Part shown: in pieces, positions 10,349 through 60,691 of the stretch
How positions within the stretch are numbered: position 1 is the first letter of the stretch
Layout: every line of letters begins with the position of its first letter
Origin: Escherichia coli
GTDB lineage: Bacteria > Pseudomonadota > Gammaproteobacteria > Enterobacterales > Enterobacteriaceae
DNA: 64,000 nt
Assembly (NCBI RefSeq): GCF_001677475.2
Contig: NZ_CP015229.1
Strand: one strand, 5' to 3'
The notes under the pieces: model-generated
Database searches by the model: none
Told to the model about the DNA's origin: nothing
What the model saw: only the letters and a program-made list of their open reading frames with translations
Position numbers and translations under genes: made by a program

Positions 10349-11077
10349 ATGAAAGGCGAAGTGAAAGAGCGCGGCATGATTTTCAACGATGAGATGGTCC
10401 GGGCCATCCTCGAAGGAAGGAAAACGCAGACGCGGCGGATAATGAAAAATCAGCCTGCGGAAGTTGGTCCAGAAGCACCAGTGATGGTTAGAAAAATTGG
10501 TGCAGGTTTTCAGTGGTACGGGGCTGATGGTGTAAGCAGTGTTTTCAATTGCCCCTTTGGTATCGTCGGCGATCGAATTTGGGTTCGTGAAACATGGGCG
10601 ATATTAGGCAATGAGGATGGTTGCAGTGTGGACTGGAACGACAACCCTTGTCGTGGCGATGAGAAGAACGCAGCAAGGATTTATCGGGCCAGTTGTGAGC
10701 AAAAGCCTGGTGATTACGGCTTATGGTCGATACCCGATGATGCCGACTGGAAACCTCACACTGTGAATGAAAAGTTTGATGGTGGGTGGCGTCCATCAAT
10801 TCACATGCCGCGATGGGCATCACGCATTCTGTTGGAAATTACCAACGTGCGCGTTGAGCGGTTGAACGATATCAGCGAATGCGATGCAGGGGCTGAGGGC
10901 GTTCCGCCTGCTGGAAGTTTACTTCCTGATTACCCGGGAACATTCCTTACTCCCAATGGGGACTTCGCAATGGCCAAGGTTGCGTTCCAGCGTCTGTGGG
11001 AGTCCATCTACGGCGAAGAAAGCTGGAACGCTAATCCCTGGGTGTGGGTAATCGAGTTTAAGCGCATTCAGGAATAA
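10349..11077 (+). CDS. phage protein with ASCH/PUA-like N-terminal domain
   Basis: 242-aa track ORF; MIFNDEMVRAILEGRKTQTRR motif typical of this prophage family. Confidence 0.55.
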   Translation: MKGEVKERGMIFNDEMVRAILEGRKTQTRRIMKNQPAEVGPEAPVMVRKIGAGFQWYGADGVSSVFNCPFGIVGDRIWVRETWAILGNEDGCSVDWNDNPCRGDEKNAARIYRASCEQKPGDYGLWSIPDDADWKPHTVNEKFDGGWRPSIHMPRWASRILLEITNVRVERLNDISECDAGAEGVPPAGSLLPDYPGTFLTPNGDFAMAKVAFQRLWESIYGEESWNANPWVWVIEFKRIQE

Positions 11078-11080
11078 ACC

Positions 11081-11353
11081 GTGAGTATGCATCAAGTCGT
11101 CAGCTTTTCAGGTGGACGAACATCGGCTTATCTCGTTCATCTGATGGAAGCACAGCGAAAAGCTGGCGCTAGCGTCCATTTCATTTTTATGGATAAGTCT
11201 TACGGCTGGACTGAGTGCGATACCTTCGAAAGGTATTACGATTGGTCGAGAAACAAATGGTGGGCAGTCACTGACGATGGGGAAGAATCAGCATCGAAAC
11301 TAACTCACTGGATGCCACTACCAGAACCGCCACAGGAGTCGAAGAGTGAATAA
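11081..11353 (+). CDS. PAPS-reductase-like PP-loop fragment (90 aa, probably a truncated remnant)
   Basis: VVSFSGGRTSAYLVHL...FIFMD resembles the N-terminal PP-loop of PAPS-reductase-family proteins, but the ORF is far too short for the full domain. Confidence 0.4.
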   Translation: MSMHQVVSFSGGRTSAYLVHLMEAQRKAGASVHFIFMDKSYGWTECDTFERYYDWSRNKWWAVTDDGEESASKLTHWMPLPEPPQESKSE

Positions 11354-11552
11354 AGCAGAGTTATTTCAGAAAATATCGGCTCTCGCGACTGAATGCCACG
11401 CTATAGCATCTGAGCTTGATGTTGGCGATGAACGAACCGAGATGTTCGAAATATACAGTGTGCTGCGCAATCTCTGTCGGCGTGGCTACGCCACTCAAGT
11501 AGGGCGAATGACTAACCCACTACTCTCATCCTGTGATGAGGATGACGAATGA
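11346..11552 (+). CDS. hypothetical protein
   Basis: 68-aa track ORF overlapping neighbours by a few nt. Confidence 0.4.
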   Translation: MNKAELFQKISALATECHAIASELDVGDERTEMFEIYSVLRNLCRRGYATQVGRMTNPLLSSCDEDDE

Positions 11553-12214
11553 TGCATAAATCAGTAGCCGGTGAGTTTCAGAAGGAAGTCGATAATACTA
11601 CCGTTCTATTGGACGATATTTTAAGCATTCTCGCGCTGCTTGAGGCTGGCGATTGGTCAGAACATTGCACTAAAACAGAGCTAGGCGGTCGGCTTGAAAG
11701 AGAGATTACACGGCTTGTTGGTGATGCGCAGGAAGCTACAGTCACTAGTTATGAGTTAATCGCTGAAGCCTGGCGTTTGATGGATGGACAAGATCCTAAA
11801 ACAAGCGATTGGCATAGCAAGGCTTCGAAGTATTTAAATTCCAATAGGGTAGAAAAAGTTGATGATGTGAAACCGAAGCCAGTAGACCACGGTTTCCGCG
11901 ATAACTGCGAATGCTCTAGTTGCCAGACCACGGCCCGTATTTGTTCCGAATTGACAGATAAGTCCAGCCTAATCTACGAAGTTAATGTAGGCGGTAATAC
12001 ATGGGTCGAATGCACAAGAGCTGCATACGTAAGAGCAAAAGACAAGGGTGAATTAACCAGAGTTGTTACCAATCACCCAAATAATGAGCTTAAAGATCAC
12101 CAGATTCGAGAACTGGTGAACGAGTTGAGGGATATTGCGGTTCAGTACCACGGAACGCAGCAATTGCGGGAGAAGATTGCCAGAGCAGTGAACAACTCAG
12201 TCCGTAAAAAATAA
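11549..12214 (+). CDS. hypothetical protein
   Basis: 221-aa track ORF; ATGA overlap with the upstream ORF. Confidence 0.6.
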   Translation: MMHKSVAGEFQKEVDNTTVLLDDILSILALLEAGDWSEHCTKTELGGRLEREITRLVGDAQEATVTSYELIAEAWRLMDGQDPKTSDWHSKASKYLNSNRVEKVDDVKPKPVDHGFRDNCECSSCQTTARICSELTDKSSLIYEVNVGGNTWVECTRAAYVRAKDKGELTRVVTNHPNNELKDHQIRELVNELRDIAVQYHGTQQLREKIARAVNNSVRKK

Positions 12215-12427
12215 GCAATAGTACGATAAAGAGGCCCCATGCTCTTGATGGGGCCTGTAGCAACTAGCGTTATGGACGCTGGTTTACGTACTCAATGATC
12301 GCTTTGATAATCGCGAACATCGGCGGCACGATTTTGAACAGTAAGTTAACCATAACAGGTCTCACTTAGTTTTATCGCGCCTAGCTGCAAATACCTTTGG
12401 GCTTGCCTTTGCAGTTGCAATATCTGT

Positions 12428-12620
12428 AGTCGCCAGATACTTACGGCACGATTTCGAGTTAAGGTAAGGTTTTAGAGTCACCAAAAACCTGGACTTAAAT
12501 CTTCTTTGAGAACAACGATGTTTAGTAAATGGTCATTATTACCTGGTATGACCACTCAACGTTTCTTGATGAATCCAGTACATTCGGTTAATCTTAATTC
12601 AGTCGCCAGATACTTATGGC
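12428..12620 (+). repeat. two 20-bp direct repeats AGTCGCCAGATACTTAYGGC (12428-12447 and 12601-12620) in a structured non-coding region
   Basis: 19/20 identical copies 173 bp apart, with several hairpins between and after them; no ORF with a plausible start in 12215-13015. Confidence 0.6.
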
Positions 12621-12653
12621 TCAGGAACAGAGCCGCAAACTCTGTTTCCTCTT

Positions 12654-12685
12654 AAAAAGCCCAGCCTAGTCAACTGGGCTTTTTA
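12654..12685 (+). terminator. rho-independent terminator
   Basis: AGCCCAG-loop-CTGGGCT stem with A-run before and T-run after. Confidence 0.7.
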
Positions 12686-12980
12686 ATGTCTATTTTTAAC
12701 CCAATGAACCTTCAATACCGCAACATCAGTGTCTTGCGAATTAAGATAGTGTGTATAGGTTATACATGCAAGTGCATAACTCTGTGGATAACTCAGGAAG
12801 GAAAAAGTAGCTTCCGCGCAATTTAGGCCAGACAAGGCTTTCGCAAAAGTCAACGGAGAGAAAAAATTTGTTAAAAATAACGTTTGTTGGAATTGTATAT
12901 ATTTATGCCTTTCAATAGTTAGCATCTTATTAACATCTTTTTTAAGAGATAGAGTTCAAAAATATATAGCTTCAACATAT

Positions 12981-13000
12981 ACCGTATGTATATACAGTAT
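12981..13000 (+). promoter_or_regulatory. LexA (SOS) box-like sequence upstream of humD
   Basis: ACCGTATGTATATACAGTAT: perfect CAG half and alternating TA core, CCG instead of CTG in the other half; 16 nt before the humD ATG. Confidence 0.4.
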
Positions 13001-13015
13001 TAAGAGGCGAGTATT

Positions 13016-13405
13016 ATGGGCTTCCCTTCTCCTGCGGCGGATTATGCTGAGAGCCGTATTTCTCTTGATCAGCAGATAATTAGACATCCTTCAGCGACCT
13101 ACTTCATGAGGGCAGCTGATAGTCATCACCGTGAGGGAATATTGCAGGGTGCTTTGCTGGTGGTTGATTCTTCGCTTACTCCAGTTGATGGTTCGCTGCT
13201 TGTCTGCGCTATGGAGGGTGAATATCGCATAAAGAGATACCGAAAGTATCCGCGTCAGCACCTTGAGGATTTAAGCACCGGGAAGAAAGAGGCGTTACCA
13301 GTAGATGACGATGGTTACACGGGTAGTAATGCTGTTTTTGGTGTGATCACTCATGTCATTAATGATGCCCGAAGTGGGGAATTTGATGATTGTCCGGTGA
13401 TTTAA
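13016..13405 (+). CDS. humD: UmuD-like protein (LexA/S24 peptidase fold)
   Basis: 129 aa; UmuD-like S24 fold with a putative SOS box upstream; sits immediately before phd-doc as in P1. Confidence 0.8.
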   Translation: MGFPSPAADYAESRISLDQQIIRHPSATYFMRAADSHHREGILQGALLVVDSSLTPVDGSLLVCAMEGEYRIKRYRKYPRQHLEDLSTGKKEALPVDDDGYTGSNAVFGVITHVINDARSGEFDDCPVI

Positions 13406-13470: not shown

Positions 13471-13477
13471 GGTGTTT

Positions 13478-13699
13478 ATGCAATCCATTAACTTCCGTAC
13501 CGCGCGCGGCAACCTTTCTGAAGTGCTCAACAATGTTGAAGCCGGGGAAGAGGTTGAAATCACTCGCAGAGGCCGTGAGCCAGCAGTAATTGTCAGCAAG
13601 GCTACTTTCGAAGCCTACAAAAAAGCGGCGCTGGATGCCGAATTTGCATCCCTGTTTGACACCCTGGACTCCACCAACAAGGAACTGGTAAACCGATAA
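13478..13699 (+). CDS. phd: Phd antitoxin
   Basis: 73 aa [49 protein letters not shown]... matches P1 Phd as recalled; stop overlaps the doc start. Confidence 0.92.
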
Positions 13700-14079
13700 T
13701 GAGGCATATATCACCGGAAGAACTTATTGCGCTTCATGATGCGAATATAAGCCGCTACGGCGGCCTGCCGGGAATGTCAGATCCGGGTAGGGCAGAGGCC
13801 ATTATCGGGAGAGTTCAGGCCAGAGTTGCCTACGAAGAGATCACCGACCTTTTCGAAGTCTCCGCCACCTACCTGGTGGCTACTGCGAGAGGGCATATAT
13901 TCAATGATGCCAATAAGCGTACCGCGCTAAACAGTGCGCTGCTATTTCTACGCCGTAACGGGGTGCAGGTATTTGATTCACCAGAACTGGCAGACCTTAC
14001 CGTAGGGGCTGCGACCGGAGAGATATCTGTATCTACTGTCGCCGCCACGTTACGTAGATTGTATGGTTCTGCGGAGTAG
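13699..14079 (+). CDS. doc: Doc toxin (Fic-fold kinase)
   Basis: 126 aa [25 protein letters not shown]...; size and sequence as P1 Doc. Confidence 0.92.
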
Positions 14080-54466: not shown

Positions 54467-55027
54467 ATGCTGATCGGCTATGTACGCGTATCAACAAATG
54501 AACAAAACACTGCTTTGCAACGAAATGCCCTTGAAAGCGCAGGATGTGAGCTAATTTTTGAGGATAAGGCGAGCGGCAAAAAGACTGAACGCCCTGGGCT
54601 AAAAAAGGTTTTGCGTATGCTTTCCAGAGGTGACACCCTGGTCGTATGGAAGTTAGATCGTCTTGGGCGCAGCATGCGTCACTTGGTTGTGCTGGTGGAA
54701 GAGCTGCGTGACAGAGGAATTAATTTCCGGAGTCTCACTGACTCTATCGACACCAGTACACCAATGGGGCGTTTTTTCTTTCACGTAATGGGGGCGCTGG
54801 CTGAAATGGAACGCGAGCTTATCGTTGAACGTACACGCGCTGGACTTGATGCAGCTCGCGCAGAAGGTCGAATAGGAGGCCGTCGGCCTAAATACCAAGA
54901 AGAAACATGGCAGCAAATGCGTCGATTGCTGGAGAATGGCATCCCCCGTAAGCAGGTTGCAATCATCTATGATGTTGCTGTTTCCACGCTTTATAAAAAG
55001 TTTCCTGCGTCATCATTTCAATCCTAA
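54467..55027 (+). CDS. cin: Cin serine invertase
   Basis: 186 aa; MLIGYVRVSTNEQ... catalytic Ser and C-terminal HTH typical of the Gin/Hin/Cin family; stop lies inside cixL. Confidence 0.92.
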   Translation: MLIGYVRVSTNEQNTALQRNALESAGCELIFEDKASGKKTERPGLKKVLRMLSRGDTLVVWKLDRLGRSMRHLVVLVEELRDRGINFRSLTDSIDTSTPMGRFFFHVMGALAEMERELIVERTRAGLDAARAEGRIGGRRPKYQEETWQQMRRLLENGIPRKQVAIIYDVAVSTLYKKFPASSFQS

Positions 55028-55044
55028 ACCTTGGTTTAAGAGAA
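55019..55044. other. cixL crossover site of the invertible C segment
   Basis: CAATCCTAAACC-TT-GGTTTAAGAGAA, a 26-bp site with inverted 12-bp arms and AAACC..GGTTT core. Confidence 0.7.
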
Positions 55045-57769: not shown

Positions 57770-60691
57770 TTAAATACTCCCCGCGTTATACCACGTTCCA
57801 TTAATGCAATACTGAATTGGCCTTGCCTGAGTTGTATCAATTAATTCATCACGGTTTCCGTTAACTGAACCCGTAACGACATAACCTGACCTGTCAGACC
57901 AGCCGGGACCATTCCATGTCTGAACAGATGACAGACCGCCAAGGCGAATACCTGTAATAAACCTTGAGTTACATTCTGCCTGCGTATATGCACCAACATC
58001 TCCTGCTGATGGCTTGCGTGTTGTGGTGTAAAATTCTGACCAGTCAGCTTCGAATCCGTAACCATCACGCGCTGAACGATAAAAAATACCACCGTTCCTG
58101 TAATTCACGCGGAACTGTACAGCAGGGCAGCTCCCCGTATTCATATTGAAGTGGAGGATTAATGTCGATGCGCCACCAATGATTGCGTTATAGACCCCGC
58201 TATTCCAGTTCCAGCCAACAGCTTTATCATTTCCGACAGTGCTTCCTGTTTGCCCTAAAGCAAATGCAGGTTGCTGATTTTTCGTGTTGTAGTCACGCCG
58301 CCAGCCTGGCGCATAATCTCCACCGTGGTTTATATAAGTAAATTGTGCATTAGTAGTTCCGCCACCGCTGGAAGTGCTTGGTGTTGTTACACGGATGGTC
58401 ATGGCACCTTTATTACCCATAACCTCAATAACGCAACCTGCAAGATGAATAGTTCCACAGCCAGTATCGGTAATAATTTTATTATTGCCGTATGACCATG
58501 AACATTTGCACATCCAGTATGGGTGATTGAATGCCCCTTGAGAATCCAGCCATTCAATCAATTGTGCTGTTGTCCAGTTACCTGCCCCTGTACTAATAGC
58601 ACTGTGAAAAGCGCGACATGCACCAATATTTTTGGTGAAGGTATCTTTTCCTGGAATATCCGCGCCGTTCTGGTTTTTCTGTAATGCTCCTACGGCTAAT
58701 TCTACGGTTTGCTCAAGATTTAAATCTTCCGCCGTTAGCTCAATGTTTTTAGAACCATCAAACGAGACACCGTTAATAGTACGTGCTGTCTGCAATTTGG
58801 TCGCTGTAGCCGCATTACCAGAGGTGTCCTGATTCCCTTTGGCATTAACGCCGGGAACGGAGTCTTTTGACGTATAGATCTGTGCCCATTCGGACCATGC
58901 CGCAGCAGTGCTATCTCTTTTGGATCGAATGAAAGCAGGTGCATGAGCGCCATTTGTGCCACTCCAGCCAATGAGCAACTCGCCTTCACCAGTTGATGCA
59001 GCTCCCTTCAGGTGAAGTACATTCCCGTAAGTCGTCGGATAACCATTGTTGTATGCCTCATACATCTGCAATCCAGTAGCAGCACCTTGCGTTGTACCGG
59101 TAAGCGCAGTAACGCGTCCTCTAGACGTAATTGTTGGTATCGAAATGTTCGTAGAACCATCGAACCTGACGCCATTAATATTTATGGCTGTTTTTAATTT
59201 CGTCGCGGTGTCGGCGTTCCCTGTCAGCGCCCCGGTGATCCCGCCGTTGAAAGTCTGGCGCGCACTCCATGTGTTAGCCGTACTCAACAGGGGGATCTTT
59301 TCACCGCTGGTACCGAGTTCTCTTAAACCAAGGTATTGGATAACGGCCAGTGTGCTTGTTTTAGCCAGAATATCGCGACCGACTGACGTTAAATCAGTCT
59401 GAGCTACCGTATCCTTACCAGTAAAATAAGGCAGTTTGTTTGCACCAGTCGCAAGGGCCGCGAGAGCGGTTAAAGTTGCATCCAGAGGCTGTTTGCCTGC
59501 CAGCGCATTTGTCATTGTTGTCGCAAAGTTCGGGTCATTGCCAAGTGCTGCGGCAAGCTCATTCAGGGTATCAAGAGCTTCTGGTGATGAACCAACCAGT
59601 GCGGATATGGCAGCTCTTACATAAGCGGTCGTAGCAATCTGCGTATTATTTGTGCCCTGTGCGGCGGTCGGCGCAGTAGGGACACCCGTTAATGCAGGGC
59701 TTGCCAAAGGCGCTTTGAGAGCCAGGGCATTGTTGATAGTTGTGCTGAAATTCGGGTCGTTATTGATCGCAGCCGCTATTTCTTTCAGCGTATCCAGTGT
59801 GCCAGGCGCACCGTTGATAAGTGCAGTTATAGCTGCCTTAACAAAGGCTGTATTTGCGATCTGCGTGCTGTTTGTACCTTGCGCTGCCGTCGGCGCGGTT
59901 GGCGTTCCTGTCAGACTCGGGCTTTCTATTGGCGCTTTGGTATCAGCCAGATCCTTTACAGACTTAACGGCTTTAGGGGTCGCCGCCATTGTTTCGCTGT
60001 CGCTGTTAGTTTCGCTACTGAGCTGAACTAATCCCTTTTGCGTTGTGCTTGCATCCTGCGCCGTATACTTGCTTTTTGCCAGATCGTAGGCTTTTTTAAC
60101 TGCCAGCGAACTTGCAGCAACATCACTTCTACTACTGGTTACAGAGTCTGAAATATCAATGCCGATCGTGCGGTTAATACGCTCGGATGTATCAATCATC
60201 TCCTGGGTAATGGCTGATACGCCAGCAGGGATATTCACCGTACAAACAAGCAGCTCCCCATCTCCTAACTGATATGAATCGGTATAGGTTCTGGCAACAA
60301 ATTCAGCCGCATGAATATGTGACGCGGTATTAACCTGATAGGTATCCTCTCCAAGGAGGTATCTTCCCTTCAGCACAATTGCATATTTCTTGCCTGCACT
60401 AAGTGCAAGAGAAATATCCTTACGGTGCTGAATAGTTACCTGGTAGAATTCACCAATATCCACCGACGCCGCGCCTGCGGTTTTATCACCATCCACTGAG
60501 GTGATTAACAGGTTCATCCCACCGCCAGGCTTAGGTAAGAAACCGGCATAAAATCCCGGGTCAACAATCCCCCTGAATTTTCGGTTTAGCGCGGCTGACA
60601 GATATGGTTCGTGGTATTGCACATCAGCCACCAGAGCCAACGACTCGGGTGATGGGGAAGTAACCGATGTGACAACTGTAACGTCATTCAT
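57770..60691 (-). CDS. tail fibre protein S (constant part fused to the Sv variable part)
   Basis: 973 aa from ATG 60691 (AAGGA upstream); track ORF extends to 60778 through an in-frame upstream start overlapping R; crosses cixR. Confidence 0.85.
59318..59343. other. cixR crossover site
   Basis: TTCTCTTAAACC-AA-GGTATTGGATAA, inverted relative to cixL. Confidence 0.7.
59480..59930 (-). repeat. internal tandem duplication (about 2 x 216 bp) within the S gene
   Basis: two consecutive ~72-aa blocks ([59 protein letters not shown]... and [59 protein letters not shown]...); coordinates approximate. Confidence 0.5.

Follow-up and report, generated by a model that had tools for sequence, protein, structure and literature searches.

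To our knowledge, NinC of phage lambda (orf-290; NP_040635.1) has no known function, and neither ATP pyrophosphatase nor sulfonucleotide reductase activity is known to have been established for it. We likewise know of no function for DUF551 (Pfam PF04448), a domain of lambdoid prophage proteins such as YfdS of CPS-53 and Ea22 V2, where it is the C-terminal domain. Illegitimate joints in phage genomes are usually thought to be scattered and then to be filtered by selection, and gene flow between phage-plasmids and phages has reportedly been documented in general in one study. Lambda ninC and the P1 pmgT-pmgV region (pmgT/U/V) were both non-essential in a CRISPRi screen (PMC10695390). DUF551 has been described as a portable C-terminal domain that is carried on many different N-termini (PMC10834534). 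Here, we analysed a stretch of 64,000 nucleotides from Escherichia coli (contig NZ_CP015229.1), hereafter called the window, and in particular a small ORF at positions 11081-11353. The ORF joins the beginning of a ninC gene to the end of a DUF551 gene. The dinucleotide at which the two parts meet is also the breakpoint of ninC in many variants with other partners.

Results

Organisation of the locus

DNA comparison showed that the region around the ORF is colinear with P1 and P1-like phage-plasmids, with pmgS, pap, pmgT, humD and phd/doc as landmarks. Coordinates below are those of the window, and L004 is the corresponding locus of NZ_CP033848.1.

8313-9575: pmgS, colinear with P1
9648-10154: pap, colinear with P1
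10349-11077 (+): pmgT-like gene, 242-aa allele, 97-98% nucleotide identity to P1, 813R1 and P1-like plasmids; phrog_874
11081-11353 (+): chimeric ORF, NinC(1-36)::DUF551 (C-terminal 52 aa), by Pfam, PHROGs and alignments
11087-11195 (+): ninC-type remnant, codons 1-36 plus 1 nt, 100% identical to L004 5048-5156
11102-11125 (+): PP-loop SFSGGRTS, from the translation; kept in lambda NinC
11194-11195 (no strand): junction dinucleotide TA, recurrent ninC breakpoint, equal to L004 5155-5156, by three-way alignment
11196-11353 (+): last 52 codons and stop codon of a DUF551 gene, in frame; Pfam PF04448
11303-11353 (+): 3' end that is conserved among DUF551 genes and encodes THWMPLPEPPQ; second mosaic joint and start of the colinearity with phage-plasmids of the pLF82/Cyrano type
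11346-11552 (+): 68-aa ORF, imported cassette; phrog_4220 (E = 6e-39), present in pLF82-type plasmids
11549-12214 (+): 221-aa ORF, imported cassette; phrog_20174 (E = 2.5e-161), equal to CYRAN_97
13016-13405 (+): humD (UmuD-like), right edge of the replaced block, in the overlap of P1-type with pLF82-type homology; P1 annotation
13472-14079: phd/doc, colinear with P1

The pmgT-like gene is a conserved P1-type backbone gene located directly 5' of the chimera, which lies within the pmgT operon. Upstream of ninC, this gene exists as two alleles of 192 and 242 aa that diverge between L004 4401 and about 5040 (loci L012-L046), and both alleles are found with intact and with broken ninC. P1 itself has a 310-aa pmgT and no ninC. 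Two cix-like sites are found elsewhere in the window, at 55019-55044 (CAATCCTAAACC TT GGTTTAAGAGAA) and, inverted with respect to the former and about 4.3 kb away, at 59320-59345 (TTCTCTTAAACC AA GGTATTGGATAA). The segment between them is presumably the invertible tail-fibre C segment of the P1-like element.

The N-terminal part derives from ninC

Read from the GTG at 11081 on the plus strand, the ORF has 90 codons and carries, as described in the initial annotation, an SFSGGRTS PP-loop, at residues 8-15. The homologous start is the ATG at 11087, the codon at which lambda NinC and the RefSeq-annotated intact gene also begin, and the product probably has 88 aa from this start. Two Pfam families match the ORF. 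The PAPS_reduct match (PF01507), over residues 6-50 and profile positions 3-44 of 175, is sub-threshold, with 15.1 bits against a cut-off of 22.5, and the DUF551 match (PF04448), over residues 45-85, is above the gathering score, with 33.5 bits against 22 (E = 8e-8). PHROGs split the ORF into an N-terminus belonging to phrog_424, a PAPS-reductase family, and a C-terminus belonging to DUF551-type families. The PAPS_reduct match is not due to chance, because residues 3-38 (GTG numbering) are identical at 36/36 positions to the start of WP_123907690.1, an intact 290-aa protein encoded at the same position in P1-like plasmids; beyond these residues the two sequences are unrelated.

Many P1-like plasmids matched window 11040-11195 at 100% in a DNA search and then diverged, and the matched DNA in these plasmids is the start of a gene annotated as 'phosphoadenosine phosphosulfate reductase family protein'. 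In NZ_CP033848.1 the intact gene has 873 bp, encodes 290 aa and directly follows the pmgT-like gene. Its protein, WP_123907690.1, is equal in length to lambda NinC and 80% identical to it, scores 36.9 bits against PAPS_reduct, which is above the Pfam threshold, and matches phrog_424 end to end (E = 3e-92). The position of the remnant is orthologous, the window running colinearly with L004 and further P1-like plasmids that carry ninC as far as the junction; in the intact relatives, ninC is followed at this locus by an array of ead/Ea22/DUF551 genes. By these comparisons the lost gene is identified as an orthologue of lambda NinC. The view that a larger gene of the PP-loop/PAPS-reductase type left this ORF as its remnant is thus borne out, the intact 290-aa gene being present at the same locus in most relatives and the window keeping its codons 1-36. 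Nothing shows it to encode a phosphorothioation or deazapurine-type modification enzyme, which the initial annotation had mentioned as users of this fold.

The remnant, whose residues 1-36 are homologous to NinC 1-36, comprises beta1, the PP-loop, a helix and beta2, which ends in FMD, and it shares both SFSGGRTS and FMD with lambda NinC. Unlike NinC, it lacks 254/290 residues, among them the DTGCEHP segment, the remainder of PAPS_reduct and, near the C-terminus, the Cys motifs GNCVFC and GSCSESC. The ORF reads FMD|KSYGW, and the DTG motif that follows beta2 is gone. With the intact protein as query, tblastn placed NinC residues 1-36 at 11087-11194 and found residues 37-290 nowhere in the 64-kb window (next best E = 2); the suggested check of all frames downstream of the ORF therefore yielded no further piece of NinC. 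Since 254/290 residues are gone, the remnant cannot be an active member of the family. We infer that it has no enzymatic function, because 36 residues cannot form an ATP-pyrophosphatase site and because the DTG and Cys motifs are gone; at most it would be a translational-coupling spacer.

Some features of the wider NinC family can be noticed. The 657-aa protein P0250 is a NinC-like protein fused to a C-terminal region resembling a DPPY-type N6-adenine DNA-methyltransferase, and many NinC homologues have an insertion of about 50 residues near residue 148. Both features hint that the family may act on DNA or nucleotides. A diverged ninC allele from a lambdoid prophage (L050 3001-3120 and 3160-4056) is split by an in-frame TGA (GATACCTGAGCT), which takes the place of the Gly codon of the DTG motif and adjoins the TA breakpoint described below; this may be a coincidence. 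The 39-aa product of this allele is indexed in 59 blocks of the collection. Five PLSDB 'plasmids' match ninC at about 78% (NZ_CP104294.1, NZ_CP068597.1, NZ_CP082339.1, OR902850.1 and OR902857.1). They are assigned to Stenotrophomonas, Paenibacillus, Salmonella and E. coli, and measure 48.4-48.5 kb, the size of the lambda genome; they are probably lambda DNA and not native plasmids.

The C-terminal part derives from a DUF551 gene

Window 11191-11353 matches DUF551 genes of lambdoid prophages at about 92-94% nucleotide identity, and such matches are found in 837 complete E. coli genomes. The last 52 residues of the chimera are 88-94% identical to DUF551 proteins of lambdoid prophages and end, like these, in the family motif HWMPLPEPPQ. 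A plain truncation followed by random read-through is ruled out by this tail. An intact DUF551 gene, for example the one encoding 263 aa at L008 1866-2657, covers all of profile positions 1-68, whereas the chimera covers positions 20-68 of 68 and lacks the first 19 or so, including the conserved WISCSERMP segment. The N-terminal 28% or so of the domain is replaced by the NinC fragment. DUF551 genes and ead/Ea22-like genes occur together in arrays, an arrangement that is also typical of the variable region at this locus. A 69-aa call of the same ORF is annotated as 'DUF551 domain-containing protein'.

The junction and the imported block

A three-way alignment gave TATGGATA|CCGG for intact ninC, TTGGGGTA|AGTC for the DUF551 parent and TATGGATA|AGTC for the window. 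In a longer alignment, the corresponding sequences are ...TTTTTATGGATA|CCGGCTG for ninC, ...GTGTTGGGGTA|AGTCTTAC for DUF551 and ...TTTTTATGGATA|AGTCTTAC for the window. The join is in frame and located at a shared TA, within an imperfect microhomology, GGnTA. That the ORF is an artefact of assembly or sequencing is barely conceivable, as a 2-nt microhomology cannot create a de Bruijn-graph chimera and the same junction, with identical gene order, is found in several independent NCBI and Logan assemblies.

Downstream of the junction the parentage changes again. Window 11303-13404 matches phage Cyrano (L003 4001-6116), pLF82 and many SSU5-type phage-plasmids of 108-112 kb at 96% and does not match P1, and the colinearity with these elements begins at 11303. 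P1-type homology resumes at 12980, while Cyrano-type homology ends at 13404. The stretch at the DUF551 3' end recurs at the ends of other DUF551 genes (L004 10050-10092 and L001 7989-8019). From these switches of parentage it follows that ninC codons 37-290, and with them the ead/Ea22/DUF551 array of the intact relatives, have been replaced by a block from 11196 to about 12980. This block contains the DUF551 tail, the 68-aa ORF, the 221-aa ORF and intergenic DNA. The two ORFs that follow the chimera, 11346-11552 (phrog_4220) and 11549-12214 (phrog_20174), are unrelated to NinC, as had been noted initially.

In Cyrano, the gene CYRAN_96 (L003 3611-4264) lacks one nucleotide in the DUF551 3' end (CCAGAA-CGCC) relative to window 11320-11330, and the reading frame of its DUF551 gene therefore continues into the 68-aa ORF, giving a 217-aa fusion. 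In the window, unlike in Cyrano, the DUF551 part and the 68-aa ORF are two overlapping genes. The following stretch of about 800 bp, 12215-13015, has no plus-strand ORF longer than 60 aa and is of the pLF82 type, not of the P1 type; hot and lxr are found at the corresponding position of P1. A GC-rich inverted repeat is located 3' of the 221-aa ORF, at 12232-12256.

The exact DUF551 donor is absent from the databases searched, in which the best match has 93-94% nucleotide identity, so that a one-step deletion in cis is indistinguishable from stepwise acquisition from another replicon. The event was a deletion or a replacement whose right side is now an SSU5/pLF82-like cassette. The initial proposal of a truncation by deletion is right in that the gene body was lost, and it needs amending in that the product is not a bare truncation but an in-frame DUF551 chimera, formed by deletion or replacement.

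Very probably, the window is a P1-like phage-plasmid whose ancestor carried the 290-aa NinC orthologue in the dispensable and highly mosaic region between pmgT and humD. Illegitimate joining then fused ninC, ending in ...TTTTTATGGATA, at the shared TA to the 3' third of the DUF551 gene, removing ninC codons 37-290 together with any intervening DNA, and the frame was kept by chance. The product is a hybrid of 88-90 aa, made of beta1, the PP-loop, the helix and beta2 of NinC and of the last 50 or so residues of DUF551. The SSU5/pLF82-like DNA on the right-hand side probably recombined in through the conserved DUF551 3' end and through humD.

The locus has several properties of the mosaic joints known from the accessory regions of temperate phages, such as the lambda nin and b regions, and from exchange between P1-like and SSU5-like phage-plasmids. 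It lies in a dispensable region, its parentage switches abruptly from P1 type to lambdoid DUF551 to pLF82 type, and one of its joints falls in a short conserved sequence, the DUF551 3' end. In contrast with such joints, the left joint is intragenic, has a microhomology of 2 nt and is not scattered, being reused by at least twelve different partners.

Distribution and fate of the fusion

As suggested initially, relatives were compared, and most of them keep the intact gene. It is intact in 62/64 PLSDB records, the other two having one break at the hot-spot TA and one other deletion, and in 74/75 records from complete E. coli genomes. In IMG/VR, 13/15 copies are intact, one is frameshifted and one is broken at the hot-spot TA, and in metagenomes 7/9 are intact and 2/9 are broken at this TA. 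The exact junction of the chimera is absent from INPHARED, PLSDB and 5,426 complete E. coli genomes. The exact 90-aa product was found on 5 public draft contigs, all of which have the same order of genes. E. coli contigs of GCA_002516285.1 and GCA_033692315.1 match the window at 100% over 12-17 kb, and L011 and L047 are likewise 100% identical to it.

Protein searches revealed no diverged homologue with the NinC(1-36)::DUF551 architecture of the chimera; the matches are DUF551 proteins, other fusions of the NinC N-terminus and identical copies. A conserved family of short homologues of about 90 aa, which would have spoken against a remnant, was not found, and the copies all belong to one plasmid lineage. 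Because only identical copies from one lineage exist, the chimera is most likely non-functional. Very probably, the ORF is a fusion remnant of recent origin that is confined to this lineage and almost certainly has no function.

Some properties run counter to this reading. The ORF is intact and in frame, begins at its native start codon and retains the conserved WMPLPEPP part of the DUF551 C-terminus. It could be a functional new small protein in which the C-terminal DUF551 module has acquired a new N-terminus, as in the Ea22 variants, and the portability of the domain (PMC10834534), the above-threshold DUF551 score, the in-frame fusion and the existence of at least two other NinC(1-36)::DUF551 fusions (P0112 and P0102) are in keeping with this. 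We consider it very improbable, since about 19/68 positions of the domain profile, including WISCSERMP, are absent, conservation is not demonstrable from identical copies of one lineage, and the in-frame state is favoured by discovery through protein searches, both junction types found by unbiased DNA anchors being out of frame.

No promoter-like site was found between the pmgT-like gene and 11081, and the stop codon of the chimera overlaps the start of the 68-aa ORF (GTGAATAA). For these reasons the hybrid ORF is probably still transcribed and translated; transcription would start from the C1-controlled pmgT promoter and translation from the native ninC start.

A recurrent breakpoint in ninC

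Other fusions were found by protein search, as proteins with the same N-terminus of 36-38 residues and different tails, and their DNA was mapped on L004. In all mapped short fusions the left breakpoint is identical, ...TGGA-TA|CCGG, at L004 5156, which equals window 11195. The mapped variants are as follows, with the junction given where it was read.

L012: 3' end of humD; agTA|ATGC
L013, L014, L041: 3' end of a further DUF551 gene, out of frame; GGgTA|GGGA or GGtTA|GGGA
L016, L017: in-frame internal deletion to L004 5744; gtTA|TGTACC
L019: another internal deletion; gtTA|CAGGC
L018, L020: next gene; cATA|CCGGT
L025, L036, L044: Ea22-like gene; ATA|GCAGAAC
L015: 171-aa gene, the parent of which has no TA

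The L015 junction is possibly secondary to the L025 type, with which it has a SNP and the pmgT allele in common. A query of 150 residues added P0112 and P0102, which are two DUF551 fusions, and P0225 and P0228, in which one partner gene is joined at two positions; all four break after FMD or FMDT. The breaks located elsewhere in the list from this query are frameshift variants or partial proteins at contig ends. One protein in a lambdoid prophage context, P0142 (L051), has the N-terminus of yfdP joined to ninC from ...(TA)CCGGTTGCGAACAT onward, and its junction is read as the right-hand side of the same site, again at TA, that is, as a product of the reciprocal type.

In total, twelve left-side junction types, including that of the window, and one right-side type use one dinucleotide. 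The variants occur on both pmgT alleles, and several junction types were confirmed by independent assemblies. The partner carries TA at the joint in 8/9 junctions for which the parent DNA is known. The breakpoint TA is found in both P1-type and lambdoid ninC alleles, and ATGGATAC is invariant among the P1-type, the lambda and a third ninC allele. Junctions are in frame in 10/12 types, a figure that is uninterpretable as an enrichment because protein searches favour in-frame products and both types found with DNA anchors are out of frame; we therefore dropped it as a sign of selection.

Breaks elsewhere in ninC do exist. Phage 813R1 breaks at L004 5110 and is rejoined at 5900 with a 6-nt overlap, and in pATCC10729_02 (L048) a deletion enters ninC from upstream. 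These two cases, together with the facts that most junction types come from protein queries that start with the 36-residue N-terminus, that proteins of limited length were listed and that L015 may derive from the L025 type, would be compatible with a hot spot that has no mechanism behind it and stems from biased searches or from common descent of the variants. This is quite improbable. The 150-residue query could detect breaks up to about residue 150, and its ten fusion clusters are all at 36-38. DNA-anchor scans, in which the right-hand side was not assumed, gave the same nucleotide for every non-intact continuation. The right-hand sequences differ from the first base, the variants occur on both pmgT alleles, and several types are supported by independent assemblies. 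Reuse of this one breakpoint is a genuine regularity.

Candidate causes of the recurrence

Several candidate causes were rejected. Insertion of an IS at the TA followed by excision and deletion was dismissed, as no interrupted copy exists in about 137 complete records. The ISVsa5 copy of L036 is situated some 430 bp 3' of the junction and not at it, and the IS630 target CTAG is found in no partner. Restriction at R^CCGGY (Cfr10I type, A^CCGGC) fits in cut position and is nevertheless weak, most partners having no CCGG; such sites number 11 in 10 kb of L004 and 71 in the window against 54 expected, i.e. they are not depleted, and the L018 junction (one or two junctions in all) could be a ligation of two of them. 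By direct reading of the sequence, the Type III sites AGACC and CAGCAG (EcoP1I and EcoP15I) are absent at 25-27 bp from the break. A single-stranded DNA hairpin at the break is unremarkable (z = -0.78). Comparison by eye with the arms of loxP gave 7/13 and 2/13 matches. No intein or homing-endonuclease gene is found at DTG|C in the best 150 homologues.

The cix sites of P1 Cin were rejected as well, the resemblance being partial and the crossover position wrong. The outer part of one cix half-site, with its flank, TGGATAACGGC, resembles the hot spot, TGGATACCGGC. However, Cin would cross over at the middle of the site, which is 12 nt away from the observed break, the hot spot lacks the inner AAACC/GGTTT half-site bases and the partners are not cix-like. 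The resemblance is probably due to chance.

The pattern, in which both ends are kept, the overlap is the 2-nt TA and the partners are promiscuous except for TA, fits best with a staggered site-specific cut or strand exchange, or with a fixed 3' end that re-primes. In the first case, a homing-type endonuclease (GIY-YIG/HNH) or a recombinase that recognises the FMDTGCEHP-coding part of ninC would make a break with a 2-nt stagger at the TA, which would be repaired through microhomology. The thirteen left and right junction types at this TA in P1-type and lambdoid alleles, the TA in most partners and the invariance of ATGGATAC across three diverged alleles are as expected from such a break, and a 2-nt overlap is implied by the right product keeping (TA)CCGG... 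and the left products ...GGA(TA). Yet we identified no candidate enzyme, and neither the best 150 NinC homologues, at residues 36-38, nor about 137 complete records have an insertion (intein or homing-endonuclease gene) at the site. Moreover, double-strand ends are normally resected in E. coli, so that precise preservation of the ends is unexpected. A break of this kind seems somewhat unlikely.

In the second case, a nascent or nicked strand ending in ...GGATA-3' would re-prime at any nearby TA or GGnTA by a template switch linked to replication, so that one end of each deletion would be constant. The TA at the 3' terminus of this constant end is always part of the microhomology, and mismatches occur only at positions away from the terminus (GGgTA and GGtTA), as the need for a primer and a template predicts; most partners are located downstream on the same replicon. 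Against this, the site has no stable hairpin or obvious pause signal, and the right-side junction of L051 argues for a two-ended break. We regard such a template switch as unlikely.

Discussion

At the level of the ORF, our results call for a correction of its annotation. The protein listed as 'DUF551 domain-containing protein' is most likely a dead NinC::DUF551 fusion. The chimera also documents that DNA has passed between lambdoid prophages and elements of the P1-like and SSU5/pLF82-like kinds.

Of potentially greater importance than the ORF itself is the recurrent breakpoint. A dozen different partners reuse one dinucleotide, which is joined from either side of the break and in replicons of two kinds, and this points to a defined molecular event. 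Some process probably makes TA|CCGG, in the ninC DNA that encodes FMD-TG, unusually prone to breakage and rejoining. As a tentative proposal, possible though short of probable, the TA in ...TGGA-TA-CCGG... may be the target of a yet undescribed activity of site-specific breakage or strand exchange in enterobacterial temperate phages and phage-plasmids, which would act with a stagger of 2 nt and leave both ends to be joined to other TA sites. If this is true, mosaic joints would form preferentially in ninC and new fusion ORFs would arise from it, and the breakpoint could provide a handle on the biology of NinC.
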